Part shown: positions 3,681 to 48,049 of the stretch, piece by piece | How positions within the stretch are numbered: position 1 is the first letter of the stretch | Layout: every line of letters begins with the position of its first letter | Notes under the pieces: model-generated | Databases searched by the model: none | What the model was told of the DNA's origin: nothing | What the model saw: only the letters and a program-made list of their open reading frames with translations | Program-made: the position numbers and the translations under genes | NCBI GenBank assembly: GCA_963723565.1 | Contig: CAVRRH010000007.1 | Coordinates: forward strand, 236,643-300,642 | DNA: 64,000 nucleotides | Origin: an uncultured Gemmatimonadales bacterium | GTDB taxonomy: Bacteria; Gemmatimonadota; Gemmatimonadetes; Gemmatimonadales; GWC2-71-9 | Direction of reading: 5' to 3'

Positions 3681-3859
3681 GTTCCGCAGCTAAGGCAGCC
3701 ACGACCGACAGCGTTTCTCGATCAGGCAGGAGTATCCAATGCGTCAGTCCCTCGCTGTTTCCACTGCCCCAGCCGCCATTCCGGCGGCGGTCCAGCGAAA
3801 TCGGCGCATGCCACCGATCGAACCGCCAGGTCCTTGGTCTGAGTAGACCGTGCTCACCC

Positions 3860-3896
3860 GATGCCCCTGCGTTCGATGATCAAGCGCAGGGGCATC
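3860..3896 (+). promoter_or_regulatory. perfect 12-bp hairpin in the glnA leader (possible attenuator or processing signal)
   Basis: GATGCCCCTGCG (3860-3871) and CGCAGGGGCATC (3885-3896) are exact reverse complements with a 13-nt loop. The following GTCTTTAAG is only a weak U tract. Confidence 0.4.
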
Positions 3897-3992
3897 GTCT
3901 TTAAGCGAACCCCGAACCGAAACCCGAGCCCACGAGAACCCCATGGCGACGACCGCCCGGCCCACTGCCTCAACCCGCCGAGTCAACCGGCA

Positions 3993-5410: not shown

Positions 5411-5479
5411 GGTAGTCGTCAGTCACCAGTCGCAGTCGACTGCTCGACCATGTGACTGATGACTTGCGACTCGCGACTC
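5411..5479. repeat. inverted array of heptamer units (NNNAGTC x4 then GACTNNN x4) filling the glnA-amtB gap
   Basis: Left arm GGTAGTCGTCAGTCACCAGTCGCAGTCG (5411-5438) and right arm GTGACTGATGACTTGCGACTCGCGACTC (5452-5479). AGTC/GACT recur every 6-7 nt in mirror orientation. The array starts 2 nt after the glnA stop. Confidence 0.6.
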
Positions 5480-5508
5480 CGAGCCGTCAACCTATAAGGA
5501 GCAATGCC

Positions 5509-6850
5509 GTGACGATCTTACCCTTGCTGCTCGCCGTGCAGGACGCCGCACCTCCGCCGACCATCGTTCCGGCCGATACGGCCTGGATGCTGATCTCGAC
5601 CGCGCTGGTCCTGCTCATGACCCCCGCGCTCGCCTTCTTTTACGGTGGCCTGGTGCGCAACAAGAACTCGCTCAACACCATGATGATGAGCTTCGTGGCG
5701 CTGGGCGTCGTCGGGATAACCTGGGCCATTGCGGCGTACAGCCTCGCCTTTAGCGAGGGCGGCCCGCTGCTCGGCGGCCTGGCCAACCTCGGACTCAATG
5801 GGGTAGGCACCGAGGCCAAGGGCACCATTCCGCACGTGCTCTTCATGGCCTACCAGGCCACCTTCGCCATCATCACCGCCGCGCTCATCTCGGGCGCCGT
5901 GGTCGAGCGGATGCGGTTCGGGCCTTACGTCGTCTTTATCGCCCTTTGGACCCTGTTTGTCTACGCCCCCGTGGCCCACTGGGTCTGGGGCGGCGGCTGG
6001 CTCATGACTCGCGGCGTGCTCGACTTCGCCGGCGGCACTGTGGTGCACATCAACGCCGGTGTGTCGGCCCTGGTCGCGGCGCTGGTTTTGGGCTCCCGGA
6101 AGGACTACGGGCGCCAGGCGGTGCTGCCGCACAACGTTCCTTTCACTTTGCTGGGCGCGGGATTGCTCTGGTTTGGTTGGTTCGGCTTCAACGGGGGCAG
6201 CGCGCTCGCAGCGAACGAGCTCGCCGGCCTCGCCTTCACCAACACCTTCCTGGCCCCGATGGGAACGCTGGTGGTGTGGACGCTGCTGGACTACTTCCGG
6301 ACCGGTCGGGCCACCGCCGTCGGTGCGGCCACTGGGATCGTGGTCGGGCTGGTGGCTATCACCCCGGCGGCGGGCTTCGTAAGCCCGGCGAGCGCCCTCA
6401 TGCTTGGGCGCCGTGGCGGCATTGCCGAGCTACTTCGTCATCGCGCTCCGCTCCCGCACCCGGATCGACGACTCGCTCGACGTCTTCGCCGGCCACGGGG
6501 TAGGTGGACTCACCGGCGCGCTGCTCACCGGCGTGCTGGCGCAGAAGCTCTGGAACCCAGCAGGCAACGACGGTCTGCTGTACGGCAACCCCGGCCAGCT
6601 CGGGGTCCAGGCGCTCGGCTGCCTCAGCGCGGCTCTCTACGCCGCGATCATGACGTTCGTGATCCTGAAGGTGCTGGCTCTGGTGATGTCGCTCCGCACG
6701 GTGCCCCGCGTCGAGGGCGTCGGCATGGACCTGAGCCAGCACGGCGAGGAAGCCTACGCCAGCGGCGAAGGCTCGATCCTGGTGCATCCCGAGGCGGCGC
6801 TCGTTCCCGAGCCGCTGCCCGCGTTTACTCCACAAGTCGCGTCGAGGTAG
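5509..6850 (+). CDS. amtB: ammonium transporter (Amt family; frameshifted as sequenced)
   Basis: GTG 5509 lies 6 nt after AAGGAG. The Amt signature regions (AFFYGGLVR.., DFAGGTVVHINAG.., FGWFGFNGGSA) are in ORF 5452..6915. The C-terminal part (DDSLDVFAGHGVGGLTGALLTG) is in ORF 6404..6850. The frames rejoin by removing one G at 6406-6408. Confidence 0.9.
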
Positions 6851-6855
6851 TGGAA

Positions 6856-6956
6856 GGGCTATTGGCTATGGGCTGTGGCGCTATGGGCTGCAACGGGGAC
6901 CATGCCCATCCATAGGCGCAGCGGGTCCAAGCGGCGTAGCCCATAGCCCATAGCCC
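6856..6956. repeat. palindrome with tandem-heptamer arms (GGGCTAT-type units) between amtB and glnK
   Basis: Left arm GGGCTATTGGCTATGGGCTGTGGCGCTATGGGCTG (6856-6890); right arm GCGTAGCCCATAGCCCATAGCCC (6934-6956). The arms are near reverse complements. It starts 6 nt after the amtB stop. Confidence 0.7.
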
Positions 6957-7346: not shown

Positions 7347-7521
7347 GGGGACGGCGGTAAGCGCGGTACGGTTCGTAGCATTCTCGTCATCCCGAACGTA
7401 GTGAGGGATCTCAAACCTTTCGGGTCTGAGATCCTTCGCTTCGCTCAGGATGACAGCGCACACCCTGCCTCCCGTCTTTCCCGTCCTTCCCTCCTTCCGG
7501 TCCTTCCCGTCCTTCCCGTAC
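7345..7521. repeat. composite repeat: G-rich arm, GTCATCCCGAACG..CGCTCAGGATGAC core palindrome, C/T-rich tandem arm
   Basis: Core halves at 7386-7412 and 7428-7454 are inverted copies. The right arm, 7465-7521, is made of CCGTCCTTCC-like units. Translated, the core gives the SEAKDL and HPERSEGS peptides seen in spurious ORFs 6960..7523 and 7411..8481. Confidence 0.7.
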
Positions 7522-7530
7522 ATTCCACTG

Positions 7531-9212
7531 ATGGCCCAACAAACTCAGGAGCAGCGCCATCACCGAGGGCGTCCAGCGCGCCCCGAATCGCGCGATGCTC
7601 CGCGCCGTCGGCTTCGGCGACGGCGACTTCGGCAAGCCGATCGTCGGCATCGCGAATGCGCACAGCACCATCACGCCGTGCAATGCCGGACTCGACGTGC
7701 TCGCGCGTCGGGCCGAGGCCGCGGTGCGCGAGGCCGGCGGCGCATGCCGCAGATCTTCGGCACGATCACCGTGAGCGACGGCATCTCGATGGGCACCGAG
7801 GGGATGAAGTACTCGCTGGTGTCCCGCGAGGTCATCGCGGACTCCATCGAGACGGCCTGCGGGGCGCAGAGCATGGACGGCGTGCTCGCCGTCGGCGGCT
7901 GCGACAAGAACATGCCCGGTGCCATGATCGCGATCGCGCGGATGAACATCCCGGCGGTCTTCGTCTACGGCGGCACGATCAAGCCGGGCCACTACGACGG
8001 GCGCGACCTCACGGTCGTGAGCGTCTTCGAGGCGGTGGGCCAGCACAGCGCCGGCAAGATCGATGACGGCGGAGCTGCTCGAGGTCGAGCGCAGGGCCTG
8101 CCCCGGGCAGGGCTCGTGCGGCGGCATGTTCACCGCCAACACGATGTCGTCGGTGTTCGAGGCGATGGGGATGAGCCTGCCCGTATCCTCCACCATGGCC
8201 GCCGAGGACGCGGAGAAGGCCGAGAGCGCGGCGCAGTCGGCGCAGGCGCTGGTCGAGGCGATGCGCCGCGGAATCTTGCCGCGCCAGATCCTGACGCGCA
8301 AGGCGTTCGAGAACGGGATCGCGGTGGCCATGGCGCTCGGCGGCTCGACCAATGCGGTGCTGCACCTGCTCGCGATCGCGCACGCCGCGGGCGTGCCGCT
8401 CGAGCTCGACGATTTCGAGACGATTCGCGCCCGCGTGCCGGTGCTCTGCGACCTCAAGCCATCGGGGCGGTACGTCGCCACCGATCTGCACCGCGGCGGG
8501 CGGCGTCCCCCAGGTCATGAAGATGCTGCTGGACGCACGGGCTGCTGCACGGCGACGCGCTCACCGTCACCGGGGAGACCGTCGCGGAGGAGCTGCCGGA
8601 CGTGCCCGCCGAGCCCCGGCCGGATCAGGACGTGATCCGGCCCTGGGAGCGGCCGCTGTATGCCCAGGGCCACCTCGCGATCCTGCGCGGCAACCTGGCG
8701 CCCGAGGGCGCGGTCGCAAAGATCACCGGCGTGAAGAGCCCGGCGATGACCGGCCCGGCCCGCGTCTTCGACTCGGAAGAGAGCCTGCCTCGACGCCATC
8801 CTCGCCGGCCGCATCCGCGCCGGCGACGTCATCGTGATCCGCTACGAGGGGCCGAAGGGCGGGCCGGGCATGCGCGAGATGCTCGCGCCGACCTCGGCGA
8901 TCATCGGCGCCGGACTGGGCGACTCGGTCGGCCTGATCACCGACGGCCGCTTCTCGGGCGGCACCTACGGCATGGTCGTGGGGCACGTTGCGCCCGAGGC
9001 GGCGGTGGGCGGACCGATCGCGCTGGTGCGAGGAGGGCGACCGCATCACGATCGACGCGGAGCGGCGCCTGCTGCAGCTGGACGTCCCGGACGACGGAGC
9101 TGGCCCGGCGGCGCGCCGCGTGGAAAGCCCCGAAGCCCCGCGCTACACCGCGGGCGTGCTTCACAAGTACGCCAAGCTGGTCTCCAGCGCGAGTCTGGGC
9201 GCCGTCACCGAC

Positions 9213-9218
<6 letters not shown>
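7531..9218 (+). CDS. ilvD: dihydroxy-acid dehydratase (about 9 frameshifts as sequenced)
   Basis: Highly conserved IlvD sequence can be followed through all three frames:
- [28 protein letters not shown]
- [30 protein letters not shown]
- [25 protein letters not shown]
- [13 protein letters not shown]
- [15 protein letters not shown]
- [22 protein letters not shown]
- [12 protein letters not shown]
- [24 protein letters not shown]
The first shift is an extra G at 7534, right after the ATG. Confidence 0.9.
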
Positions 9219-10303
<1,085 letters not shown>

Positions 10304-10307
<4 letters not shown>

Positions 10308-10914
10308 GACTTCGCTCCGCTCGGGCAAGGCGGCTGGCGCTCGAAGGCGGCGATGCGGCGGTTCGTCCAGCAGCGTTTGTCCGATCTCATCCAGGCCGCG
10401 CAGCAGCATCTCCCGCCGGTACTCCTCGACCTGAACTGGCCCGGAAGCCTCCGCCATCGCTCACCGCTCGCTGCGTCCAGGTCGATAGTCATTTCGTAGC
10501 CCCGCGTTGCGGCGCAGCGCTCGAAACAGCTCGGCCACCTCTGACCTCGGTCAGGACCACCGGCAGCAACCCGTTCTGGCAACAGTTGGCGTAGAAGATG
10601 TCGGCGAAGGACGGCGCGATGATGGCGCGGAAACCGAAATCCGCGAGCGCCCAGGGCGCGTGCTCGCGGGATGAGCCGCAACCAAAGTTCGCGCCGGTGA
10701 GCAGAATCGTTGCGCCCTGCGACTCGGCTCGATTCAGCTCGAACTCGGGGTTCAGAGTACCGTCGCTTCGATACCGCCAATCGTGGAACAGAAACGCTCC
10801 GAAGCCGGTGCGCTCGATCCGCTTCAGGAACTGCTTCGGAATGATCTGGTCGGTGTCGACGTTGGCTCGTCGAAGCGCGGCGACTCGTCCAGTGTGCGAA
10901 ACAAAGGGCTGCAT
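10304..10914 (-). CDS. leuD: 3-isopropylmalate dehydratase small subunit (about 3 frameshifts as sequenced)
   Basis: [39 protein letters not shown].. is in ORF 10489..10926. The continuation (..[11 protein letters not shown].., ..[21 protein letters not shown].., ..IAAFERQ..) lies in two other frames. Confidence 0.88.
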
Positions 10915-11016
10915 ATGCTCCCTCATTGTTATGCATGCGCGGAGGAGAGCGACGACGAAAGCAACTTTAAGTGGTCGTCTATAACCTTATGTGTTGCTGG
11001 GTGTTACAGAGCACGA

Positions 11017-12490
11017 CTAAGGTACCATCTCAGTATGCATAGCGGTGTCAAACGCTTCAGCCTGAGCTGTTGAGCTGCTCATAAACGCTCGCACGTCTAC
11101 CAGACATCCGGCAATCGCCGCTGCAGCCGCCATCGCAGGACTCATCAAGTGCGTGCGTCCTCCCCTTCCCTGCCGACCCTCGAAGTTCCGGTTCGATGTG
11201 GAGGCGCAGCGCTCACCCGGACCGAGCACATCCTCGTTCATCCCCAGGCACATCGAGCATCCGGGATTGCGCCATTCAAACCCTGCTTCGGTGAAGACGC
11301 GGTCCAATCCTTCGCGCTCAGCTGCAGCCTTGACCTGGCGCGAGCCAGGCACGACCATCGCTCGCACCCCGCTCGCCACTCTTCGTCCTCGCGCGACCTG
11401 AGCGGCCTCGCGCAGGTCCTCGATTCGCGCATTGGTGCATGAGCCGAGAAATACCCGATCTACCTTGAGCCCCTCGAGCGGAGTCCCGGGCCGAAGGTCC
11501 ATGTACTCCAGCGCCCGTCGCCACGAGTGACGGTCGGCCTCCGACTTGGCCTCGTCGGGGTCCGGAACCCATCCTGTAATATCGGTCGTCATTCCAGGGC
11601 TGGTGCCCCAGGTGACCTGAGGCTGCACGGCGCTCGCATCGAGCGTGACGTGTTGGTCGAAGTAGGCGTCCGGGTCGCTCCGTAGCGCGCTCCAGGCACT
11701 CACCGGCACGCTGCCATTCCCTGCCCGCTGGAGCCTCGCGCCGCCCCGCCAGGTAAGCCAGCGTCTTGCCGTCCGGCGCGATCATGCCGGCCCGGGCCCC
11801 AGCCTCAATGGACATGTTGCAGACCGTCATGCGGCCTTCCATCGACATCGCGCGGATGGCCTGGCCGGTGTACTCGATCACGTGTCCCGAGGCGCCCGCG
11901 GTGCCGATCTGGCGAATCAAAGCCAGGATCAGATCCTTGGGCGACACGCCGAGTTGAGGAAGTTCAGAGAAACAAACCTCCATAGTGCGCGGAGGGGTCT
12001 GCACCACACACTGCGTGGCAAGCACGTGCTCGACCTCACTCGTTCCGATACCGAACGCAAGTGCCCCGAACGCCCCGTGGGTCGAGGTGTGGGAGTCGCC
12101 GCAGACGATGGTCATGCCCGGCTGGGTGAGCCCCAGCTCCGGGCCGATCACGTGGACGATTCCCTGCTCGGGCGAATCGAGGTTGAAGAGCCGGATCCCG
12201 AACTCACGGGCGTTCCGTACCAGCGCCGCCACCTGCCGTGCCGACAGCTCGTCCGCGATTGGCAGCCGCCGGTCGCCGGTCGAAACGTTGTGGTCCACGG
12301 TGGCGACGGTGAGCTCGGGGCGACGAACGCGCCGGCCGCTCAAACGCAGCCCCTCGAATGCCTGGGGTGAAGTGACTTCGTGCACCAGGTGCAGGTCCAC
12401 GTAGAGCAGCGCCGGTCCCCCTGGGACCTGGCTGACGACGTGCGCATCCCAGACTTTCTCGAAGAGCGTGCGAGCAGTCATCGTTGCCAT
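11017..12490 (-). CDS. leuC: 3-isopropylmalate dehydratase large subunit (one frameshift near 11710-11740)
   Basis: The N-terminal 260 aa ([19 protein letters not shown].., [26 protein letters not shown]) are in ORF 11318..12652. The C-terminal part (..[12 protein letters not shown].., [18 protein letters not shown]) is in ORF 11017..11709. Confidence 0.9.
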
Positions 12491-12685
12491 AGCCAAGGGG
12501 AGCCGCAGGTGAACGCAAGAACAGATCGGATCGTTCCACTGCCGATAACAGCTTCCCCGTGCCTGGACAGGGGCCTTGGTGTTGTTATTCAACTGCACAC
12601 CTCCGAGTCCAGGCCAGTAAACGGAGACTTTGGTGAACGAGGGGCGATCCATCCTGTTCCTGTGTTCCTTCCGCGGCTTCTTTTC

Positions 12686-13801
12686 TTATCGAGGGAGCGG
12701 GTGAGCTGGGCGGCGCGGGCGCCGCTCCGATTTCGCCTTGCTATCGGCAGTCCTCTCGCTGCCCTGCTGTCCCGCTGTCCCGCTGTCCCGCTTCTTCCCC
12801 TCCTCCGACCACGGCATCATCGCCCGCAGCTCGGCGCCCACTCGCTCGATCTCATGGTCCTTGTCCGCCTGGCGGGCCCGCTCGAAGTTGGGGCGCCCCG
12901 CCCGGTTCTCCTCCAGCCATTCCCGGGCGAACGACCCGTCCTGGATGGCCTCCAGGATCCGCTGCATCTCGGCTCGGGTCTCATCGGTGATGACCCGGGG
13001 ACCCCGCGTGTAGTCACCGTACTCCGCCGTATCGCTGATCGAGTAGCGCATGAAGCCGAGCCCGCCGCGATACATCAGGTCAACGATGAGCTTGAGCTCG
13101 TGCAGACACTCGAAGTAGGCCATCTCCGGCCGGTACCCCGCCTTGGTCAGGGTCTCGAAGCCGGCCTTGACCAGGGCGGTCACACCGCCGCACAGCACCG
13201 CTTGCTCCCCGAAGAGATCGGTCTCGGTCTCCTCCCGGAACGAGGTCTCGATGACACCCGCGCGGGTGCAGCCGATTCCCGAGGCATAAGCGAGCGCGTT
13301 GGCGAGCGCCTGCCCGCTCGCGTCCTGATGCACCGCCACCAGCCCGGGTACGCCCCGGCCGGCCTCGAACTCGCTCCGCACCAGGTGGCCGGGCGACTTC
13401 GGCGCCACCATGGTGACGTCGACTCCCGCGGGGGGCACGATCTCGCCGTAGTGAATGTTGAAGCCGTGGGCGAACATCAGCGTGTTGCCCGGACGGAGGC
13501 CCTGGGCCACGCCTGCCTCGTATATGGCACGGCCATCCTGATCCGGCACCAGCATCATGATGACGTCGGCTTGCTCCGCGGCTTCGGCCACCGGGCGTAC
13601 ATCGAGCCCCGCAGCCTGAGCCCGGTCCCATGACGCGCCCCCGCGGCGCAGACCCACGATCACCTTGGCACCGCTCTCCCGGAGGTTGAGGGCGTGAGCG
13701 TGCCCCTGGCTGCCGTAGCCGATGATGGCAATGGTCCGGCCGGCCAGGAGGCTGGGGTCGGCGTCGGCATTGTAGTACACCCGCACCGGTGCGTTCGTCA
13801 T
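12686..13801 (-). CDS. ilvC: ketol-acid reductoisomerase (class I) with about 38-aa repeat-encoded C-terminal tail
   Basis: Intact ORF with [21 protein letters not shown] Rossmann motif and the KARI core up to ..ELRAMMPW. The last ~38 codons run through the tandem octamer array at 12759-12800. Confidence 0.92.
12759..12800. repeat. single-arm tandem octamer array (CTGTCCCG x3-4) at the 3' end of the ilvC ORF
   Basis: CTGCCCTG CTGTCCCG CTGTCCCG CTGTCCCG CTTCTTCCCC, read directly from the sequence. Confidence 0.7.
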
Positions 13802-14304
13802 GTCACTGTCTCTGATTGAAGGTTGTTCGCCGTGCCGAGCGCGATCGTGCCGCTGCGGGCCACCTCGACCACGTCGAATCGCTCGAGGGCGCGGAGGCAG
13901 GAGAGAACGAAGGCTTCGGACCCGCTGAGCTCGACGATCAGGCCGTCGGTGGAGTCATCCAGCACCGTGGCGTTGTAGAGCTGGACCACATCCAGCAGCT
14001 CGGCGTAGCGATGATGCGGAGCCCGAACCTTCACCAGGGCGAGCTCGCGGGTCACCCCGTCCAGGGTAGGAAACGCGATGGCGGCGCGGACGCCGATCAT
14101 CTTCTGCAGATGCTGCACGGCTCGCTCCGCGGTGGCAATGTCCGACTGCATCATGATAGTCAACCTCGAAAGGCCGGGGGTACCTGTGGGGCCGATGGCC
14201 AGGCTGCGTACGGGCAGATTGCGCCGCCGGATGAGTCCGACCGCGCGGTTCAGAGTGATCAATCGGTCCTCCAGCAGGACCGACACCGCTTGGGCTTCGC
14301 TCAT
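13798..14304 (-). CDS. ilvN: acetolactate synthase small (regulatory) subunit
   Basis: Intact 168-aa ORF with an ACT-domain-like N-terminus ([32 protein letters not shown]). ATGA-type overlaps with ilvB and ilvC. Confidence 0.88.
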
Positions 14305-16020
14305 GCGGGGACCAGGGGCGTTGCCGCGACCCCCTCGATGGGCTCCGAAAGCGACCCACCGGGCGGAATCATGGGAAACACATTTGCCTCCTGTTCGATC
14401 ATGAATTCCACCAGGACCGGGCCAGGCTCGGCCGCGGCCTCGGCGACGGTGCGTTTCAGCTGATCGGTCGACTCGACCCGGTGTCCGGCGATCCCATAGG
14501 CCTCGGCGAGCTTGACGTAGTTCGGACTCCAGATCGGCGTGGCCGAATAGCGCTTACCGTGAAAGAACTGTTGCCACTGCCGCACCATCCCCAGGTACCC
14601 GTTGTTGAAGACCGCCATCTTCACCGGGATTCCCTCCTGCACCATGGTGGCGATCTCTTGCATGTTCATCTGGAATCCTCCGTCGCCCGAGATTGCCCAG
14701 ACCGGCTCACCCGGACGAGCCAGAGCGACGCCCATCGCCGCCGGTACCGCAAAGCCCATCGTTCCCAGTCCGCCGGAAGTGATGTGGCTGTTGGGCCGCT
14801 GATACCGAAACAGCTTGGCGACCCACATCTGATGCTGGCCGACATCGGACACGATGGTGGAGCGGCCGTCACTGGCGTCGCTGATGGCGTCCAGGATTGC
14901 CTGGGGCGAGAGGCCGGCGCGGAAGCTCTCCTCCCGAGGGCGCACAAAACTGGCAATCTCGCGCCGCCACGCGTCGCAGTTGCGGGGCGCTACCGCGGGA
15001 AGCAGGGAGCAGAGCACTTCCCGCGCGTCGCCTATGAGTCCCACGACCGCCGGCACGTTCTTCCCGATTTCCGAGGCATCGAGCTCGACGTGAATGAGCT
15101 TTGCCCCCCGGGCGAAGCCGGCGAGGTTTCCGGTTACCCGGTCGTCAAACCTGAGACCCAGGCCGATGATGAGGTCGGACTGCTGGATGGCCCGGTTGAC
15201 GTGAACCTCGCCATGCATGCCGGGCATTCCCAGGTGGAGCGGGTGCGACTCGGGAAAGGCACTGATGCCGAGCAGGGTGGTGATCACCGGAATGCCGGTG
15301 CGCTCCGCCAGCACCCGGAGCTCGTGATACGCGCCGGAGAGCACCACCCCGTGACCGGCCATGATGAGGGGCCGCTCGGCGGCGGCGATGAGCCGGGCAG
15401 CCTCGGCGAGAGCGGCGGTAAGGCGGTAGGGCGGTAGGGCGGTAGAGCGAGAACCTACCGCCTTTCCGACCTTCCGCCTTTCCGCCTTGCCACTCCGCCT
15501 TCTGATTCTGCACATCCTTGGGAATATCCAGCAGCACCGGTCCGGGTCTCCCTTCCTGGGCAACATGGAAGGCCTCGCGTACCGCGTCCTGAATCTCCTC
15601 GACGTCCTCGATCAGGCGACTGTGCTTGGTGATCGGCTGAGTGATCCCGATGATGTCGGTTTCCTGGAAGGCGTCCCGCCCCATCATCGCGCGGGCTACC
15701 TGGCCGGTGATCGCCACCACCGGCGTGCTGTCCATGTTGGCCGTGGCGAGCCCGGTGACGAGGTTGGTCGCTCCCGGACCCGAGGTGGCCACGCACACGC
15801 CGGCGCGGCCGGACGCGCGGGCGTACCCGTCCGCCGCGTGCGCCGCCGCTTGCTCGTGCCGTACGAGCACGTGCCGGAGCCCCGGGAACTCGGGCAGCGC
15901 GTGGTAGAATGGCATGATGGCGCCACCCGGGTAACCGAAGAGGACGTCGACACCCTCGTCGAGCAGGGCACGGCAGAGGATCTGTGAGCCGGTCAGGATT
16001 CCGTCATGGACGTGCCCCAT
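14301..16020 (-). CDS. ilvB: acetolactate synthase large subunit (one net frameshift inside an intragenic repeat)
   Basis: The N-terminal Pyr domain ([50 protein letters not shown]) is in ORF 15145..16068. The central and PP domains (..[29 protein letters not shown]..) are in ORF 14301..15566. The frames switch within 15414-15502. Confidence 0.9.
15414..15502. repeat. imperfect hairpin of GGCGGTAG-type octamer repeats inside the ilvB coding sequence
   Basis: GGCGGTAAGGCGGTAGGGCGGTAGGGCGGTAG (15414-15445), a 9-nt loop, then CTACCGCCTTTCCGACCTTCCGCCTTTCCGCC... (15455-15502). It is translated as ..[20 protein letters not shown].. in the linker after DIPKDVQ. Confidence 0.75.
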
Positions 16021-16077
16021 GCGCCAGGCGTAAGTCGCCAGTTCGAAGCGGAGGACGGCCCCGATCACGACCCAAGA

Positions 16078-16103
16078 CTGCTGACCGCTGACCGCTCACG
16101 ACT
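16078..16103. repeat. single-arm tandem heptamer array (GCTGACC/GCTCACG) in the leuA-ilvB spacer
   Basis: CTGCTGACCGCTGACCGCTCACGAC. The minus-strand reading GTGAGCGGTCAGCGGTCAGC is related to the GGTGAGC units at 47127. Confidence 0.55.
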
Positions 16104-16111
16104 TTCGACCA

Positions 16112-17668
16112 TCACACCCCCCACAGGTACACCGAGTTCAGCGAGCTCGCCTCCAGCTTGTCGGCGTGCCGCGCCTTGTTCAGAGCGTGCACCAGTGCCC
16201 GCGCGCTGGCCTCCACGATATCGGTCGAAGCGCTGTGTCCGGTCAGCGACTTGCCGTCGATCTTGGCCTGCAGAAAGACCTGGCCTACGCTGTCCCGCCC
16301 TGGAGTGACCGATCGCAGTGAAAGGCTCAGCACCTCGAGGTGCCGCTCCAGGATCTCGCTCACCGCCGCGAACGCCGCCGCTATCGGACCGTCTCCGGTA
16401 CCGCGCGCCGAGCGTTCGCCGGTCCACGGTCCCGTCATCCGGACCTCCGCCGTTGCCGTCACGCTGCCGCAGACGACCCGGAGGTGGGTGAGCTGATACT
16501 CCTCGGGCGCGTCGTGAAAGCTCTCGTGCAGCAGGGCCAGCAGGTCCTCGTCCAGGATCTCGCGCTTGCGCTCGGCGAGCGCGGTGAAGCCCTGGTACAG
16601 GGCGGCCAGCTCCTCCTCGCTGAGCTGATAACCCAGCTCCTGGCAGCGGCGCTCCAGCGCGTGCCGGCCGGAGTGTTTCCCCAGGACGAGCGTCGAGCGC
16701 GGAATGCCGACCATCTCGGGCCGGATGATCTCGTAGGTGAGCCCGTTCTGCAGCATCCCATGCTGGTGGATACCGGCCTCGTGAGCGAACGCGTTGCGTC
16801 CCACAATGGCCTTGTTCGGCTGGGGAAAGACCCCGGTGAGGTAGGAGAGGAGCTGGCTGGTGCGATAGATCTCGCGCGACTCTACCTTGCACTGGAACGC
16901 CACCGCGGCTCCGCGCACCCGGCTCGCCATCACAATCTCCTCGAGGGCCGCGTTCCCGGCGCGCTCGCCGATCCCGTTGACGGTGCACTCGACCTGTGCC
17001 GCTCCGGCCGCGATGGCGGCCAGTGTGTTCGCCACGGCCAGGCCAAGGTCGTCGTGGCAGTGAGCGCTGAGGATCACCCCATCGCTCCCTGGCACCCGTT
17101 GGCGCACGTCCCGGAACATCGCGGCATACTCGGCCGGCATCGCGTAGCCGACGGTATCCGGCAGGTTGATGGTCGTGGCTCCCTCTTCTATAGCGGCTTC
17201 CACCACCCGGCAGAGAAAGTCGGGGTCGGTGCGGCTGGCATCTTCGGCGGAGAACTCCACGTCGTCGGTGTACTGGCGAGCCCGGCGGACCGCATCGCGC
17301 GCCATGGCGAGAACCCCCTCGCGCGTAGTACGCAGCTTTTCCCGGATGTGAAGATCGGAGGTGGAGACGAATACATGGAGCCGGCCGCGGGCCGCTTCGC
17401 TGATCGCCTCGCCGGCCAGCTCGATGTCCCGTTCCAGACAGCGTGCGAGCGCCGCGATGACCGGGCTCCGGACCTCGGTCGCAATGTCTCGCACGCTCCG
17501 GTAGTCGCCCTCGGACGCGGCCGGGAAGCCGGCTTCGATGATGTCGACGCCGAGCGCGTCGAGCTGGCGAGCAAGGCGGAGCTTCTCTTCGGGCGAGAGA
17601 CTGTTGCCGGGCGCCTGCTCACCGTCGCGCAGCGTGGTATCGAAGATCAAGACTTCCGGGATTGCCAT
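16112..17668 (-). CDS. leuA: 2-isopropylmalate synthase
   Basis: Intact 518-aa ORF with [30 protein letters not shown] and a C-terminal LeuA dimerisation/regulatory domain. Confidence 0.93.
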
Positions 17669-17691
17669 ACGTCGCTTTCGGGCTGAAGGGT

Positions 17692-17726
17692 AAAGAAAAG
17701 CGCCGCGAACTCTTGGTCCGCGGCGC
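17692..17726 (-). terminator. intrinsic terminator (attenuator) 24 nt upstream of the leuA start
   Basis: On the minus-strand RNA: GCGCCGCGGA, loop CCAAGAG, UUCGCGGCGC, then UUUUCUUU. This is a 10-bp stem including one G-U pair. The left arm has an alternative perfect 10-bp partner, GUCCGCGGCG, at 17775-17784. Confidence 0.7.
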
Positions 17727-17754
17727 CGGTTGCAATCAGTGGAGACTTACCGTC

Positions 17755-17850
17755 TCATGTTGCTCGTCTAGGCACGCCGCGGACCCCTCGCTCACCGATG
17801 AGGACGGTAAGCAGGACGCTAAGGAGGACGACGACGAGGACGAGCTGCAT
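17755..17850 (-). CDS. putative branched-chain amino acid operon leader peptide (31 aa, MQLVLVVVLLSVLLTVLIGERGVRGVPRRAT)
   Basis: ATG at 17850, TGA at 17757-17755. Fourteen of residues 3-18 are Leu, Val or Ile. The ORF ends 29 nt before the terminator stem, and its codons 22-25 form the antiterminator strand. Confidence 0.6.
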   Translation of the reverse strand: MQLVLVVVLLSVLLTVLIGERGVRGVPRRAT

Positions 17851-17914
17851 GTGCTTGAGCCGTGTATCGAGTGTTGGTGACCAGGCCGGAACTTTATGCT
17901 TCGGCCGGATCATC

Positions 17915-17943
17915 AGGCTACGCCATTACGAAGGCACTGTCAA
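17915..17943 (-). promoter_or_regulatory. sigma70-type promoter TTGACA-N17-TAGCCT for the leader-leuA operon
   Basis: On the minus strand, TTGACA (17943-17938), a 17-nt spacer, then TAGCCT (17920-17915). It lies about 60 nt upstream of the leader ATG. Confidence 0.45.
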
Positions 17944-18005
17944 GAGCAAGCCAAGTACCCGAGGCAACAATTTTGTAACCAGCGACATTGGCGTAGGATT
18001 CCGTC

Positions 18006-18034
18006 TTGACGGATTCACCCCAATGCATAATAAT
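18006..18034 (+). promoter_or_regulatory. sigma70-type promoter TTGACG-N17-AATAAT upstream of the gltB leader
   Basis: TTGACG at 18006-18011, a 17-nt spacer, then AATAAT at 18029-18034. It is in the only AT-rich patch of the leuA-gltB divergent region. Confidence 0.45.
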
Positions 18035-18138
18035 GCGGTATGAATCTGCATCGCGCCCGGGTAACCCTTATCGTGAATCTCAATCTCGTCCGCTCCAGGG
18101 GAGCGCCCGGGTGAGCTTAGCGTCTTCACGTTAACCCC

Positions 18139-18170
18139 GGCCTGCTCCCAAGTGGAGCGGGCCTTTTTTA
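18139..18170 (+). terminator. intrinsic terminator within the gltB leader, 55 nt upstream of the gltB ATG
   Basis: GGCCTGCTCC (18139-18148), loop CAAGT, GGAGCGGGCC (18154-18163), then TTTTTTA. This is a 10-bp stem with one G-U pair. Confidence 0.65.
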
Positions 18171-18224
18171 TGGCCTCGAGTACGGCCTCTCCGGCCGCTG
18201 GGGCACGACAACTCAGGAGACACC

Positions 18225-21200
18225 ATGGCCGCCAATGGGCAGCGGATCCACCCGGCCGGTTCCCGTCAGCACCACCGACGACACGCCGCCACTCGTGCAA
18301 CAACCTCCCTCGATTCCACCCGTGAGCATGATGCGTGCGGCGTAGGCTTCGTAGCCGCGGCATCCGGCGTTCGCAGCCATGAGGTAATCGCCATGGCCGT
18401 CGAGGCGGCGGCCCGTGTGGCGCACCGGGGCGCGGCCTCGACTGACCTGTCAGGCGATGGCGCGGGCCTTCTGACCCAGATCCCTCACCGATTGTTCTAC
18501 CGGGACTCCTACCGGCTGGGACTTCACCTGCAGCCCGGGCTCCCCTTTGGCGTGGGAGCCTTTTTCCTGCCGCCGTCCGGAGAGGCACTGGCTGCCTCGG
18601 TCAAGATGGTCGAGACGGTGCTGGCCGGGGACGGCATTCCGATCCTGGGCTGGCGCGACGTGCCGACGAATCCCGCTGCACTGGGCCCCACCGCGCAGGC
18701 GTCGTGTCCAGTCATCCGGCAGGTCCTGGTGGGCCGGCCGGCGCTCACGACCGACGAGGACGCCTGGGAGCGAGCCCTCTATCTGGCCCGGCGCGAGATG
18801 GAGCGGCGAGCGGAAGAGGCCAGGTTCCCCGGCTTCTACGCCTGCTCGATGTCCTGCCGCACCATCGTGTACAAGGCGTTGCTCACCGGAACCCAGCTCC
18901 CGGCGTTCTTCACCGATTTCCGGTATCCGGAATACGAGAGCGCGATCGCCGTCTTCCACCAGCGCTACTCGACCAACACCCTGCCCAGCTGGCCCCTGGC
19001 ACAGCCGTTCCGCCTCCTGGCCCATAACGGAGAGATCAACACGTTGTGGGGCAACCGGAACGCCATGACGATGCGGCAGCCGATGCTCGCCTCGCCGATA
19101 TGGGGAGAGAAGATCGAGCGGCTCAGGGAAGTCATCTGGCGGGAGGGCAGCGACTCGGCGAGCCTCGACAACGCGATGGAGCTGCTGGTTCGTTCCGGCC
19201 GTGATGTGATACACGCGTCGATGATGACGATCCCACAGGCGTGGGAGAAATACTCCGACCTCGATCCCGGGGTGAAAGCGTTCTACGAGTATCACCAGTG
19301 CATACTGGAACCGTGGGACGGTCCGGCCGCTCTCGCCTTCACCGACGGCGTGCTGGCGGGCGCCGCGGTGGATCGCAACGGGCTCAGGCCCTGCCGGTAC
19401 AAGGTGCGGGCGGACGGCCTGGTGGTGGCCGGCTCCGAGGTTGGCCTGGTGGACCTGGATCCGCGCGAGGTGGTGGAGTGCGGGAAGGTCGGCCCCGGTG
19501 AGGTCCTGGTGGTGGATACCCGTCGAGGAGAAGTGATTCGCAACCTCGACGCAAAGCGGGAGGTGGCGGCTCGCCGCCCGTACGCGCGCTGGGTCGCCCG
19601 CTACATGGCGACCCTGGTTCCCGACCCCGCGAGAGTTCCCCCCACCCACAGCGGCGAATCATTGCTGCGACTGCAGCGGGCGTTCGGCTACGGTGCCGAG
19701 GACTTGCGGATCGTGCTCGAGCCAATGGGCAGCACCGGCGGCGACCCGGTCTGGAGCATGGGTGACGATACTCCGATCCCGCCGCTCTCCGCCGTGCCCC
19801 AGAGTCTCTACGCCTATTTCCGGCAGCGGTTCGCTCAGGTCACGAATCCGCCGATCGATTCACTGCGCGAGTCCATGGTGATGTCGCTCAGGATGCACCT
19901 GGGCCGGCGCGGCTCGCCCTTGCTCGAGCGAGCCTCGTACGCCCGGATGCTGCGGCTGGAGCACCCGATCCTGCTGGCAGAGGAGATGGCGGCCCTTCGG
20001 AATGTCGCCGGGTTCTCGACCGTTACCCTGGATGCCGTATGGAATCCGGCGAAGGGAACCGGCGGACTCAAGTCCGCCCTCACCGCGCTCCGCCGTGCCG
20101 CGGAGCGCGCCGCGCGTCGGGGAGCACACATCCTCATCATCAGCGATCGCGCCGCCACTGACCGCCACGCACCCATCCCCATGCTCCTGGCCATCGGGGC
20201 GGTGCGCCAGCATCTGGTCCACGTCGGCCTGAGGGCCCGGGTGGGCATCGTGGCCGAGGCGGGCGACGCATTCGATATCCACCACTTCGCCACCCTCATC
20301 GGTTACGGTGCGGAGGCGGTGCATCCCTGGCTGGCCCTGGAGAGCGTTGACGAGATTTTCAGCGAGGTAGGGGCGACGCGATGCGTCGCCCGCGGAACCA
20401 GCGTCCCTCCCCGTTGAGGCAAGACATCAGTACCGCACGGCGGCCGAGAAGGGACTGCTCAAGATCCTCTCGAAGATGGGGATCTCCACCCTCTCCTCCT
20501 ACTGCGGTGCCCAGATCTTCGAGGCGCTCGGGCTCGGCAACGAGGTGATCACATCCTGCTTTGCCGGTACCGCCTCGCCACTCGGCGGGATCGGCTTCGA
20601 GGAGCTGGCCGAAGACGTCATGGCAGCGGCATGGGTCGGCGTACCAGGCCGTGGAGGCTGCTTCGCTACCGGATCACGGGCGAGTGCGCTTTCGCAAGGA
20701 GGGCGAGGATCACGGCTGGGCACCCCAGATCGTGATGGCACTGCAGCAGGCAACGGGAAGTGGGAGGAAGGCGGGCGGACGGGCGGAAGGGCGGAGGGCG
20801 GACAGACGGAAGGGACGGTGAGCGGCTATCAAAACTTTCTCGCGAAGAACGGAGCTCGACGTCCGGCGGGGCCGCGTGATCTGCTGGCCGTGAAGCGTGG
20901 TGACCCGATTCCGCTGGAGCAAGTCGAGCCAGCCGAAGACATCCGCCGCCGATTCGTGTCCTCCGCCATGTCCCTCGGCGCTCTCTCGCCGGAGGCGCAT
21001 GCCACGCTGTCCATCGCCATGAACCGGATGGGCGCGCGGTCGAACTCGGGAGAGGGCGGTGAGGATCCCGCGAACTACCACGGGCTCGGCAATGGCGACC
21101 GGGCCGACAATCGGGTGAAGCAGGTGGCATCCGCCCGATTCGGCGTGACCACCGAGTACCTCACTCGGGCGGAGGAGCTGGAGATCAAGATCGTCCAGGG

Positions 21201-22897
21201 CGCCAAGCCAGGTGAGGGCGGACAGCTTCCGGCCCACAAGGTCACCGACCTCATTGCCCGGCTGCGGCATGCCGTGCCCGGGATTCAGCTCATCTCGCCG
21301 CCGCCGCACCACGACATCTATTCGATCGAGGACCTGGCCCAGCTGATCCACGATCTCAAGACCGTCAATCCCCGCGCCCGAGTCGGGGTGAAGCTGGTTT
21401 CCGAAACCGGTGTGGGGACGGTGGCAGCCGGAGTGGCCAAGGCCTACGCCGACTACGTGCTGATCGCGGGGCACAACGGCGGCACCGGCGCATCGCCGCT
21501 CTCATCCATCAAGCACGCGGGCTCGCCCTGGGAGCTGGGACTGGCCGAGGCGCAGGCTACCCTGGTGCGAAACGGGTTGCGCCATCGAATCGAGGTCCGC
21601 ACCGATGGAGGACTGAAGACCGGACGGGACGTTGTCATCGCCGCTCTGCTTGGAGCGGAGAGCTACGGCTTCGGCACCGCGCCGCTGGTGGCCATGGGAT
21701 GCGACATGGCCCGGCAGTGCCACATCAACACCTGCCCGACCGGCATCGCCACCCAGCGCGAGGATCTCCGGGCCAAGTTTCGCGGGACGCCGGAGCAGGT
21801 GATCTCCTATTTCACCTTGATCGCCGAGGAGGTGCGGGGCATTCTGGCGGGTCTCGGTGTCCGCACCCTGGATGAGATTATTGGGCGCAACGATCTCCTC
21901 GAGCGAGTCGAGTGCCCCGACGTGCCGCGGGCGCAGATGCTGGATCTGTCGGTGCTGCTGGCGGGACAGCGGGACGGGCGGACAGAAGGGCAAAACGTAG
22001 CGCTGCGCCGCACAGTGGAGCGCAACGATCGGCCCGGCCTGGTGTCTCTCGACAACGAGATCCTGGCCGATCTGAAGCCGTATCTGGACTGCGCGCTTCC
22101 CTTCTCCGGCAACTACCAGATCCGCAACCACCATCTCACGGTGGGCGCGCGAGTGGCAGGCGCCATCGCGGAGCAACACGGGGATGAAGGCCTACCGCCT
22201 GGATCGGTTCGTCTTCGCTTTACCGGTACCGCGGGCCAGAGCTTCGGGGCGTTCCTCTGCCGCGGCGTGCATCTCGAGCTCGAAGGCGAGGCCAACGATT
22301 ACGTCGGCAAGGGACTGAGCGGAGGCGAGATCACCATCCGGCCGTTCCGCCGTGCCGGCTACGCCGACGTGTCGCACCAGCATCTGATAATCGGCAACAC
22401 CGTTCTCTACGGTGCCACTGCCGGGAAGCTGTTTGCCGCCGGCCAGGCGGGCGATCGCTTCGCGGTCAGAAACTCCGGCGCGGTAGCGGTGATCGAGGGA
22501 GCGGGCAACCACTGTTGCGAGTACATGACCGGCGGGATCGTCGTCGGTGCTCGGCCGTGCCGGCCGAAACTTTGCTGCCGGCATGTCGAATGGGGTGGCA
22601 TACGTCATGGACGAAGCCGGCACGTTCGCCAGCCGGCTGAACGGCGATCATGGTGGAGCTGGAGTGACCTGGATGACGAAGATGTCGAGCTGCTGCGGAA
22701 GCCTGATCCGGGAGCACGAGGAGAAGACGGTGAGCGCCAGGGCACGGAATATCCTGGTGCGGTGGGAGGAATACCTGCCACTGTTCCGAAAGGTCATGCC
22801 GAAGAGTGCGGCGCTCCAAGTCGCCGTCATTAGGGCGGCCTATCTGAGCTCGCCCCCCGCCGAGGCCGAGCTTTGGTTGGCACGCAGAACTGCCTGA
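18225..22897 (+). CDS. gltB: glutamate synthase large subunit (at least 7 frameshifts as sequenced)
   Basis: Conserved GltB blocks can be followed across frames:
- The amidotransferase Cys (HDACGVGFVA) and N-terminal domain, in ORF 18225..20417.
- [24 protein letters not shown] and the FMN domain (MSLGALSPEAH, SNSGEGGEDP, KIVQGAKPGEGGQLP, GHNGGTGASP), in ORF 20476..22833.
- The C-terminal GXGXG domain, ending in ORF 22547..22897.
Resolved shifts are at about 20390, about 20620, within 20755-20818, about 22540, and at 22649, 22665 and 22699. Confidence 0.92.
20755..20818. repeat. single-arm tandem 7-8-mer array (GGGCGGAN units) inside the gltB coding sequence
   Basis: GGGAAGTGGGAGGAAGGCGGGCGGACGGGCGGAAGGGCGGAGGGCGGACAGACGGAAGGGACGG. 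It sits between the conserved ALQQA.GSG and SGYQNFLAKNG..RDLL blocks. The reading frame changes across it. Confidence 0.7.
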
Positions 22898-36313: not shown

Positions 36314-37639
36314 TTGCCCAAGGACAGCATTACCGTCACCGACAATCGGACCGGCAAGACCTACGAGCTGCCCATCACCGACGGCACCATCCGAGCCATC
36401 GATCTGCGCCAGATCAAGGTTGCCGATGACGATTTCGGCGTGATGACCTACGACCCGGCGTTCATGAATACCGCCGCGTGCCGGAGCGCCATCACCTTCA
36501 TCGACGGCGATCAGGGTATCCTGCGCTATCGCGGCTATCCGATCGAGCAGCTGGCCGAGAAGGCCTCATTTCTCGAGGTGGCCTACCTCCTCTGTGAGGG
36601 CGAGCTGCCGAAACGGCTGCAGCTGACCAAGTGGGAAGAAGAGATCAAGTTCCACACCTACGTTCATACCAATATTACCAAGTTTCTGGAGGGGTTCCGG
36701 TACGACGCCCACCCGATGGGAATGCTGCTGGGGGCCGTGGGGGCGCTTTCCACCTTCTACCCTGATGCGAAGAACATCCACGACCCGGCCAACCGCTATC
36801 TCCAACGGGTTCGCTTGCTGGCCAAGCTGCCGACCATCGCGGCGTTCGCGTTCCGCCACTCCCGTGGACTGCCGTACGAGTTCCCCCGGAACGATCTGGA
36901 CTACATCGGCAACTTCGTCAACATGACGTTCAGCATCGGCGGGCTTCATCAGCCCAACAAGGTGCTGCAGCGCGCACTCGAGATCCTCCTCATCCTGCAC
37001 GCCGACCATGAGCAAAACTGCTCCACCAATGCCGTGCGGGCGGTCGGCTCCTCCCACGTGGACCCCTTCTCCGCAATCAGCGCCGGCATTGCCGCCCTAT
37101 ACGGCCCGTTGCACGGAGGAGCCAACGAGGCCGTGCTTCAGATGCTGGACGAGATCGGCGACAAGAAGAACATCTCGTCGTTCATCGAGAAGGTTAAGGG
37201 CGGATCAGACCGGCTGATGGGCTTCGGCCATCGGGTCTACAAGTCGTACGACCCCCGCGCCAAGCTGATCAAGAAGGTGGCCTATGACGTCTTCGAGCAG
37301 ACCGGGCTCAACCCCAAGCTGGAGATGGCGCTCGAGCTGGAGCGGATCGCGCTCGAGGACGAGTACTTCATCAAGCGGAAGCTCTACCCCAACGTCGACT
37401 TCTATTCGGGCCTGATCTATCAGGCAATGGGATACCCGACGGACTATTTCACGGTCCTGTTTGCCATCGGGCGTACGCCGGGGTGGCTGGCCCAGTGGGA
37501 GGAGATGCTGCTCGACAAGGATCAGAAGATCGCCCGGCCGCGGCAGGTGTATATCGGGTCGGAACAGCGCGACTTCGTCCCCCTGGAGAAACGGGGCGAT
37601 CGCAGGAAAGTCGAGCGGGAGAGAGTTAGTAAGAGGTGA
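36314..37639 (+). CDS. gltA: citrate synthase (type II)
   Basis: TTG 36314 lies 8 nt after GAGGA; the longest ORF starts at 36185. Conserved GILRYRGYPIEQL, LILHADHEQNCST and GFGHRVYK motifs. The stop codon lies inside the repeat arm. Confidence 0.9.
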   Translation: MPKDSITVTDNRTGKTYELPITDGTIRAIDLRQIKVADDDFGVMTYDPAFMNTAACRSAITFIDGDQGILRYRGYPIEQLAEKASFLEVAYLLCEGELPKRLQLTKWEEEIKFHTYVHTNITKFLEGFRYDAHPMGMLLGAVGALSTFYPDAKNIHDPANRYLQRVRLLAKLPTIAAFAFRHSRGLPYEFPRNDLDYIGNFVNMTFSIGGLHQPNKVLQRALEILLILHADHEQNCSTNAVRAVGSSHVDPFSAISAGIAALYGPLHGGANEAVLQMLDEIGDKKNISSFIEKVKGGSDRLMGFGHRVYKSYDPRAKLIKKVAYDVFEQTGLNPKLEMALELERIALEDEYFIKRKLYPNVDFYSGLIYQAMGYPTDYFTVLFAIGRTPGWLAQWEEMLLDKDQKIARPRQVYIGSEQRDFVPLEKRGDRRKVERERVSKR

Positions 37640-37808
37640 GAGATGAGAAGTGAGAAGTGAGAAGTGAGAAGTTTAATGTGAAGCCTTGATTGTCACCCCG
37701 AGCGGACGCGAGGGGGCCTGAGCTGTGTAGAGCTTCGGCCCCTTCGCTGCGCTCAGGGTGACACGCCCTCTCACTTCTCACTTCTCACTTCTCACTTCTC
37801 ACTTCTTA
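37621..37808. repeat. exemplar composite palindrome: (GTGAGAA)n arm, GTCACCCCGAGCG..CGCTCAGGGTGAC core, (TTCTCAC)n arm
   Basis: The left arm, 37621-37671, has 7 heptads; the inner 3-4 are exact AGTGAGA. Core halves are at 37692-37718 and 37737-37762. The right arm, 37768-37808, has TCACTTC x5. It occupies the whole gap between the convergent gltA and speA genes, and both stop codons fall in the arms. Confidence 0.85.
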
Positions 37809-46443: not shown

Positions 46444-47147
46444 GCGGACCAAAGGCTGTGGTTCTTCTGAGCGGCGGGATAGACTCGACAACGGTCGCGG
46501 CGATTGCACTCAGCCGGGACTTCGACGTACACGCGCTCACCTTCCGCTACGGGCAGCGACACAAGGCCGAGGTCGAGGCGGCCCGGCGGGTGGCCGAGCG
46601 GCTCGGAATTCGCCGGCACGTGGTCCTGGATATCGACCTGCGGGCCTTCGGTGGCTCTGCCCTCACCGGCGACGTAGATGTGCCCAAGGACACGCCCATC
46701 GATGAGATCGGGGACCGAATTCCGTCAACGTATGTCCCGGCACGCAATACGATCTTTCTGGCATTCGCAGTAGCCTGGTCCGAGGTGCTCGGTGCATCCG
46801 ACATCTTCCTCGGTGCCAATGCCCTGGATTACAGCGGGTACCCCGATTGCCGTCCGGAGTACATCCAGTCATTTCAGACGATGGCCAACCTGGCCACCCG
46901 CGCGGGGGTGGAGGGCGGCCAGAGACTCACGATTCATACCCCACTCATCGCTCTCTCCAAGCGCGAGATCATCGAGCAGGGCTTGCGGCTCGGCGTGGAC
47001 TTTGGAATCACCCGGACGTGCTACGACCCGTCCCCGGAAGGAGCGGCGTGCGGGAGGTGCGAGGCCTGCCTGCTTCGCCTAAAGGGGTTCAGGGAAGCAG
47101 GGATGGAAGATCCAGCGCCGTATCAAACGGTGAGCGGTAAGCGGTGA
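46440..47147 (+). CDS. queC: 7-cyano-7-deazaguanine synthase
   Basis: ATGA overlap with the upstream gene. [14 protein letters not shown]-loop and a C-terminal Cys cluster [17 protein letters not shown]. The last 6 codons and the stop are repeat-arm sequence. Confidence 0.92.
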
Positions 47148-47266
47148 GCGGTAAGCGGGAGAACAAGGTGCATATGCTCCTCTTCATCCACTTTGCGGTC
47201 GTGGGCTCGGGCTGCGGAAGCAGAATGGTGAGCCCCCGCTCACCGCTCACCGCTTACCGCTCACGC
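47127..47266. repeat. palindrome with (GGTGAGC/GGTAAGC)x4 arms between queC and queE
   Basis: Left arm ACGGTGAGCGGTAAGCGGTGAGCGGTAAGCGGG (47127-47159); right arm CCCGCTCACCGCTCACCGCTTACCGCTCACGC (47235-47266). There is one mismatch over the inner 3 units and a 75-nt spacer. Confidence 0.85.
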
Positions 47267-47271
47267 TTTAT

Positions 47272-47907: not shown

Positions 47908-48049
47908 GCGGGAAAGCGGGGAAGCAGGGAAGCGGGGAAGGATGCGTTGGTGCGTCACGCGCCGCCGCCGTACCAGCTCTCTTATCATCCCCTACCTTTT
48001 AAGGGCAGACTTCCCTGCCCTGCTTCCCCGCTTCCCCGCTTCCCCGCTG
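47906..48049. repeat. palindrome with (GGGGAAGC)x4 arms between queE and the HD-domain gene
   Basis: Left arm GAGCGGGAAAGCGGGGAAGCAGGGAAGCGGGGAAGG (47906-47941); right arm CTTCCCTGCCCTGCTTCCCCGCTTCCCCGCTTCCCCGCTG (48010-48049). It begins within the queE stop codon and ends 5 nt before the next ATG. Confidence 0.85.

Follow-up and report, generated by a model that had tools for sequence, protein, structure and literature searches.

The minus strand of a 64,000-nt stretch of DNA from a Gemmatimonadales bacterium (hereafter the window, meaning this whole stretch) carries a fused leuA-ilvBNC-leuCDB operon for branched-chain amino acids (BCAA), preceded by a leader that is probably a ribosome-mediated leader-peptide transcription attenuator, set by charged tRNA-Leu and, in this clade, also by tRNA-Val and tRNA-Ile. 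An earlier note on this DNA had proposed an attenuator here, and comparison with related genomes supports the proposal through a conserved layout, a covarying terminator, 91% pairing in the antiterminator and length changes inside the mini-ORF that are, for the most part, multiples of three. What the comparison shows directly, across an order of bacteria, is a set of conserved, mutually complementary sequence elements at fixed spacing. Relatives were collected in a scan with LeuA as the query and one genome per species, which gave 61 Gemmatimonadales/Gemmatimonadota loci with LeuA identities of 58-96%, with Nitrospirota and other outgroup loci ranking after the Gemmatimonadota loci. Of the Gemmatimonadota loci, 56 extend 200 nt or more upstream of leuA, and these formed the leader comparison set used throughout.

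The leader contains a mini open reading frame (mini-ORF) of 31 codons plus TGA, MQLVLVVVLLSVLLTVLIGERGVRGVPRRAT, at 17755..17850, with its ATG at 17850 and its stop codon at 17757-17755. Codons 3-18 (17797..17844) form a putative regulatory run with 7 Leu, 6 Val and 1 Ile, exactly the composition claimed before, so that 14 of the 16 codons specify one of these three residues. The best 12-residue window of the mini-ORF holds 11 Leu/Val/Ile, and all others among the 465 ORFs of 20-60 amino acids in the six frames of the window reach 7 at most. A comparable mini-ORF of 28-39 codons occupies the same position in all 56 relatives, which bears out the predicted conservation of a Leu/Val-rich mini-ORF upstream of leuA; in every one of them except the most divergent, L059, its start lies 163-213 nt and its stop 75-111 nt before leuA. 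Across the 56 leaders the best 12-residue window contains 8-12 Leu/Val/Ile, with at least 9 in the 55 leaders other than L059. The Nitrospirota and other outgroup loci showed no comparable Leu-rich ORF upstream of leuA, with the exception of L079, a gammaproteobacterial metagenome-assembled genome (MAG), which has its own Leu-run leader ORF (…LLLSLLLVLLLP) upstream of leuA at ~3760-3920 and served as the positive control of the scan; the L079 leader matched no Rfam family at the gathering threshold.

Leucine makes up 45% of residues 2-20 in the leaders, followed by valine at 17.5%, with alanine at 4.3% and phenylalanine at 2.5%. Valine is absent from three leaders (L042, L046 and L047) and isoleucine from ten. 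Leucine is the predicted regulatory residue that is universal to the family, and the distant Gemmatimonadales leaders appear to be essentially Leu-only. Rare codons are enriched in the leaders compared with leuA, CTT accounting for 26% versus 3% and ATT for 51% versus 8%.

Between the mini-ORF and leuA lies a hairpin followed by a U-run. Its stem pairs 17727-17716 with 17710-17699 through 12 pairs (2 of them G-U) around a CAAGA loop; the 5′ arm belongs to region 3 (17715..17727), the strand common to terminator and antiterminator, whose core GCCGCG is invariant in the 56 sequences, and the 3′ arm is region 4 (17699..17710). The U-run UUUCUUU follows at 17692..17698. The hairpin has a folding energy of −23.2 kcal/mol (z = −4.5), is the sole minus-strand terminator-like site in 17000-18600 and ends 23 nt before the leuA ATG (17668); the hairpin and U tail described previously were thus recovered, with the distance to leuA corrected from 24 to 23 nt. 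All 56 relatives have a hairpin between mini-ORF and leuA with a T-rich tail after the stem; with two exceptions, one of them L059 at 77 nt, the end lies 21-51 nt short of leuA. Structures were assessed on an alignment of the 56 sequences; as RNAalifold returned only seven invariant terminator pairs on this alignment, we defined helices by hand and counted pairs per cell. Terminator pairing was found in 93.3% of cells, compared with 37-48% when one strand was slid, and the stem covaries, with 24 double-change cells versus 4.1 in shuffles (0/500).

The terminator 5′ arm has a second partner inside the mini-ORF. Region 2, the predicted antiterminator 5′ strand GGUCCGCGGCGU at 17774..17785, can form a 12-bp helix with 17726-17715 (duplex −28.6 kcal/mol), within which GUCCGCGGCG (17784-17775) is perfectly complementary to CGCCGCGGAC of region 3. 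The complementarity and the position of region 2 agree with the earlier note, which had set the 5′ arm at 17728-17719 and region 2 at codons 22-25; CGCCGCGGAC lies at 17725-17716, and GUCCGCGGCG spans codons 23-25 plus the first base of codon 26. The region 2:3 duplex of −23.9 kcal/mol was better than all 100 shuffles, and in the window GCCGCGGAC has no occurrences other than region 3 and, in complement, region 2. In the relatives the partner of the terminator 5′ arm falls at codons ~22-27, mostly 6-16 nt past the last regulatory codon, and the antiterminator is paired in 90.7% of cells compared with 32-45% when slid. A three-way change at alignment column 188 involves all the strands: region 3 has A for G in 8 sequences, all 8 of which have U in region 4 and 7 of which have U in region 2.

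Region 1, the 5′ part of the codon run (17821..17845), pairs with region 2 and its flanks and would act as an anti-antiterminator, a 1:2 structure between codon tract and region 2 that was missing from the earlier model. In the minimum free energy fold, the helices of this 1:2 domain are 17845-17839/17768-17762, 17833-17828/17780-17775 and 17826-17821/17789-17784. Its apex is hairpin P, inside the mini-ORF at 17790..17812 (17812-17805 with 17797-17790; −12.8 kcal/mol), which covaries with 48 double-change cells versus 20.7 in shuffles (0/500). In the window the 1:2 domain has an energy of −38.0 kcal/mol, the 2:3 domain −37.0 kcal/mol and the terminator −22.6 kcal/mol. A further small hairpin, GAGAC GGUAA GUCUC (17742..17756), lies over the stop codon and is present in the subclade of the window (alignment A1). 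Equilibrium folding with ribosome masks gave no switch in most loci, and we therefore folded the nascent RNA of 54 loci, before region 3 is made and before region 4 is made. Without region 3, the codon tract captures region 2 at P>0.5 in 45/54 loci; when region 3 is present but region 4 is still missing, the fold with a stalled ribosome masked has a median P(2:3) of 0.86.

The reading frame of the mini-ORF leaves its own trace in the comparison. Its ATG is nearly invariant in the 56-sequence alignment, and the Leu/Val frame is open in all loci, compared with only 24-25 of 56 for the other two frames. The length from the ATG to region 2 varies between 59 and 87 nt, and 44 of the 56 loci share one phase; these span six lengths, each of them a multiple of three, and the loci outside this main phase cluster by clade. 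The non-coding spacer between regions 2 and 3 has its phases evenly spread (22:19:15). A version in which region 2 sits in one fixed reading frame across the relatives was rejected, since the frames are distributed 43:10:3, again with clade-clustered exceptions; the informative coding signal would be the changes by multiples of three within clades, not a fixed frame of region 2. The peptide sequence itself is poorly conserved except at RNA-pairing positions.

These elements suggest the following mechanism, in which we infer where transcription starts, that the mini-ORF is translated, and both the kinetics and the response to the supply of amino acids. The first RNA made from the promoter would carry the 31-codon mini-ORF. 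With ample charged tRNA, or with no translation at all, no ribosome would stall on the Leu/Val run and region 1 would pair with region 2, with hairpin P on top; region 3 would then be free to pair with region 4 once this is made, leading to termination at the U-run 17692-17698. With a ribosome stalled on the Leu/Val codons (approximately codons 3-14), region 1 would be occupied and region 2 would be single-stranded as region 3 emerges, allowing the 12-bp GC-rich antiterminator to form and the polymerase to read into leuA. A ribosome stalled at codons 16-18 would itself approach region 2, so that the early and middle codons would be the effective ones. A ribosome translating through would pass region 2 and stop 15 nt beyond it, and the 1:2 structure could re-form behind it. 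The earlier idea that a ribosome at the stop codon covers region 2 does not hold in the window, as the footprint (to ~17772) ends ~3 nt short and abuts region 2. The distance from region 2 to the stop codon ranges from 6 to 30 nt among the relatives, and this variation, together with the short footprint, suggests that re-formation of 1:2 would be the more general route to termination.

The promoter expected for this leader is TTGACA-N17-TAGCCT on the minus strand, and its previously reported sequence was confirmed. The −35 hexamer TTGACA lies at 17938..17943 and recurs, exact or one-off, at the equivalent position in nearly all of the 56 relatives; the −10 hexamer TAGCCT lies at 17915..17920 after a 17-nt spacer, and a TAnnnT 16-18 nt past the −35 is kept in the relatives, giving a TTGACA-N16-18-TAnnnT promoter ahead of the mini-ORF in nearly all of them. 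From the −10, transcription would start at ~17908, and the promoter would be of the sigma-70 type. The predicted 5′ untranslated region (UTR) of the window (17851..17908) contains a small hairpin and a conserved motif, GCAUAAAGUU, at 17899-17890, which is shared with several close relatives. A segment of ~58-59 nt between the −10 and the mini-ORF ATG is cleanly missing in L060 and L061, the two loci most closely related to the window, and the end of their −10 is separated from the ATG by 7 nt, a leaderless-like arrangement. The −10 ends 5-14 nt before the mini-ORF ATG in about one-third of the relatives, including these two, and in those loci the mini-ORF would be leaderless or nearly so. A 52-codon version of the ORF starting from the in-frame ATG at 17913 was rejected, as this ATG lies 1 nt past the −10 and the extension is not conserved. 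In L061, the closest full-length relative, a tandem repeat of CCGCCCCT (~7 copies at ~3700-3780) stands directly upstream of the leader −35 and is absent from the window.

Several observations weigh against a ribosome-mediated attenuator. The −10 hexamer of the window is weak, matching TATAAT at 3/6 positions, which left the promoter unlisted by a generic scan. No clear Shine-Dalgarno sequence precedes the mini-ORF in the window (duplex −1.7 kcal/mol) or in most relatives, the family median being −3.4 versus −2.4 for random sites, so the case for translation of the mini-ORF rests on comparative evidence. Many frame breaks in the window mean that the single-base accuracy of the leader is not guaranteed. 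When region 4 is present, the equilibrium fold favours the terminator in most loci despite a masked stalled ribosome, and P(terminator) falls below 0.2 at any stall position in only 21/56 loci; because the local terminator wins at equilibrium once region 4 is present, the switch would have to be kinetic. A kinetic decision is also the case in textbook attenuators. Covariation of the antiterminator does not rise above shuffles in the 56 sequences (131/500), because its three strands are almost invariant; the antiterminator appears to be kept by sequence conservation, and a protein-binding site could also explain this. Finally, in Streptomyces coelicolor, look-alike leaders of ilvB and leuA failed to act like classical attenuators once their codons were mutated (PMC1262725).

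The last two points would also fit a conserved terminator/antiterminator switch set by a protein or other factor that binds CCGCGG-containing RNA or DNA, without ribosome stalling, the Leu/Val frame being a by-product of a pyrimidine-rich strand that pairs with the G-rich region 2. Regions 2, 3 and 4 have the palindromic CCGCGG core in common and are almost invariant, the Shine-Dalgarno signal is unclear as noted, and a protein-binding LEU element has been proposed for actinobacterial leuA alongside the insensitivity of the S. coelicolor leaders to codon changes (PMC1262725). We nevertheless consider such a factor unlikely. A strand with two obligatory pairing partners, as region 3 would be, should be near-invariant, and the single frequent change is correlated three ways. 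A binding site also leaves unexplained the nearly invariant start codon, the ATG-to-region-2 length changes that are mostly multiples of three next to a spacer with no phase preference, the Leu/Val frame that is always open when the others are open in under half of the loci, and the leucine content of residues 2-20.

Alternatively, the mini-ORF might encode a small hydrophobic (membrane) peptide as a gene in its own right, with a separate terminator and only an incidental placement before leuA, or the peptide could have an extra function. LVLVVVLLSVLLTVLI followed by charged residues does resemble a transmembrane helix with a short polar tail, and leader peptides that act in trans are known (peTrpL, PMC7298713). 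This explanation appears very unlikely to us, given that codons of the ORF itself are complementary to the terminator 5′ arm in every relative and that the peptide is poorly conserved except where the RNA pairs. The high leucine and valine and low alanine and phenylalanine of the leaders are unlike ordinary membrane helices of GC-rich bacteria, and the 23 nt between the terminator end and leuA leave no room or signal for a separate leuA promoter. A third explanation is that an ORF, a hairpin and a complementary decamer coincide by chance: GC-rich genomes are rich in open frames and stable hairpins, and the full-leader fold is only modestly better than shuffles (z = −2.9). The uniqueness of the ORF among the 465 small ORFs of the window, the covarying terminator and a layout that all 56 relatives keep, even at 58% LeuA identity, and that outgroups lack leave chance a negligible probability, and on sequence comparison this explanation is already refuted by conservation.

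A ribosome-mediated attenuator of this kind has well-known counterparts. At the gathering threshold, none of the Rfam leader families (Leu_leader, ilvB-OMG and the other amino-acid leaders) was hit in the window or 9 related loci, and relaxing the E value to 10 over 17600-18300 yielded only chance-level matches to unrelated small RNA and microRNA families; the T-box model, in particular, had no hit in the window under either setting. The enterobacterial leu leader (leuL; Rfam Leu_leader) likewise places a peptide with Leu codons upstream of leuA and forms mutually exclusive 1:2, 2:3 and 3:4 hairpins, and an intrinsic terminator just before the first structural gene is common to both, but leuL has no sequence or covariance-model similarity to the window leader. 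In Escherichia coli, leuL encodes a 28-residue peptide with a run of four Leu codons, whereas in the window leader 14 of 16 codons are Leu/Val/Ile and the operon also holds ilvBNC. Enterobacterial leaders of ilvBN (ivbL) and ilvGMEDA (ilvL), with ~32 residues and mixed Val/Leu/Ile codons, provide multivalent sensing. With 7 Leu, 6 Val and 1 Ile in 31 codons, the window leader is closest to these in composition and size, although they belong to another operon and another phylum and have no detectable homology.

Outside the enterobacteria, upstream ORFs rich in BCAA codons and followed by terminators have been described upstream of ilvB in Actinobacteria, in Corynebacterium ilvB-II, in the ilvB-OMG family from several phyla and in Leptospira (PMC1262725, PMC10272879). 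These were found by comparative genomics, and ilvB-II was tested genetically (PMC1262725, PMC10272879); they sit before ilvB, whereas the window leader sits before the leuA of a fused leuA-ilvBNC-leuCDB operon. In Staphylococcus aureus a Leu-rich attenuator peptide controls a long combined ilv-leu operon (PMC5794164), in a Firmicute with another gene order, added CodY control and no sequence relation to the window leader. Mycobacteria have leaderless polycysteine short-ORF attenuators (bioRxiv 10.1101/834739), to which the approximately one-third of relatives that would translate their leader from leaderless or nearly leaderless RNA bear a likeness; the mycobacterial leaders sense Cys rather than Leu/Val, and the window itself has a 5′ UTR of ~58 nt.

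Divergent from the leuA leader, the plus strand carries an attenuator-like leader (18006-18225) ahead of gltB, which encodes the large subunit of glutamate synthase. It comprises a promoter, TTGACG-N17-AATAAT (18006-18034), a 24-codon mini-ORF, MNLHRARVTLIVNLNLVRSRGAPG, whose ATG at 18040 lies 5 nt past the −10 and whose stop codon is at 18112-18114, a hairpin A (~18091-18105) that is a near-copy of the terminator located downstream, and the terminator itself with a U6 tail (18139-18163), ~60 nt before the gltB ATG. The mini-ORF is kept in 23/26 relatives, with 21-27 codons and a start 5-8 nt past the −10 of a conserved promoter, and the terminator is kept in 27/29. The 3′ arm of hairpin A can pair with the 5′ arm of the terminator in 96.5% of cells, with no covariation between them. 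The position expected to be critical in this leader holds Leu codons and the Asn codon AAU, an AAT codon falling 2-4 codons before hairpin A in 18/24 gltB-leader sequences. Rfam gave no match for it, and we found no described leader-peptide attenuator of glutamate synthase in the literature. In many relatives both mini-ORFs, on the leuA and on the gltB side, would start at the predicted transcription start site. It is tempting, though only as a tentative and rather doubtful suggestion from these sequences, to speculate that both divergent promoters drive leader-peptide attenuators, that gltB is attenuated too and that leaderless leader peptides are a general attenuation device of Gemmatimonadales.

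The operon downstream of the leader, leuA-ilvB-ilvN-ilvC-leuC-leuD-leuB, occupies 9161..17668 on the minus strand, and the fused seven-gene order given in the earlier note was confirmed. NCBIfam assigned 2-isopropylmalate synthase, the large (in two pieces) and small subunits of acetolactate synthase, ketol-acid reductoisomerase, the large subunit of 3-isopropylmalate dehydratase (two pieces) and 3-isopropylmalate dehydrogenase (two pieces), and the leuD frame was recognised by its translation. The synteny leuA-ilvB-ilvN-ilvC-leuC is kept in relatives wherever the sequence is long enough. Inside the operon there are no promoter-like sites, and terminator-like sites occur at chance level only. 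Frame shifts in the window break amtB, ilvD, leuB, leuD, leuC, ilvB and gltB (5452-6915, 7450-10050, 9161-12652, 14301-16068 and 20417-20476); the pieces of the broken genes match consecutive parts of family profiles with the spacing of intact relatives, and the breaks look like assembly indel errors (or recent pseudogenes), not insertions. A repeat insertion in ilvB was rejected, since the spacing of the two IlvB pieces matches that of relatives and points to a frame shift.

Elsewhere in the window, tandem 7-8-nt repeat elements are dispersed (GCGGGGAA or GTGAGAA in several copies), with inverted arms 60-160 nt apart. Such inverted-arm and similar elements were located at 37628-37809, 47125-47269, 47907-48048, 56684-56913 and 58643-58813, and further repeat sites at 7474-7526, 12755-12792, 20759-20793, 21961-21992 and 63956-64000. 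Some single repeat arms lie within or at the ends of genes, and the tandem repeats give rise to Gly/Lys/Glu/Arg-rich stretches in several spurious ORFs. Among the related loci, one Gemmatimonadetes MAG (L027) has a tRNA-Sec gene at 1375-1464, ~2.5 kb upstream of leuA.

Because the mechanism proposed for the leuA leader is a textbook one, the gain lies in coverage, not in concept. Full-text literature searches found nothing on leader peptides, attenuation or riboswitches in Gemmatimonadetes or Gemmatimonas, and the leader would extend classical BCAA attenuation to Gemmatimonadota, a phylum widespread in soils whose gene regulation is almost undescribed. It represents a conserved, alignable RNA element with 56 examples that is missing from Rfam and would improve the annotation of Gemmatimonadota genomes, and the family would offer a clean natural case of one strand, region 3, constrained by two partners. 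Of the two similar leaders in this intergenic region, that of gltB may prove the more interesting one to follow; if it is indeed an attenuator, nitrogen assimilation through gltB would come under leader-peptide attenuation in these bacteria.

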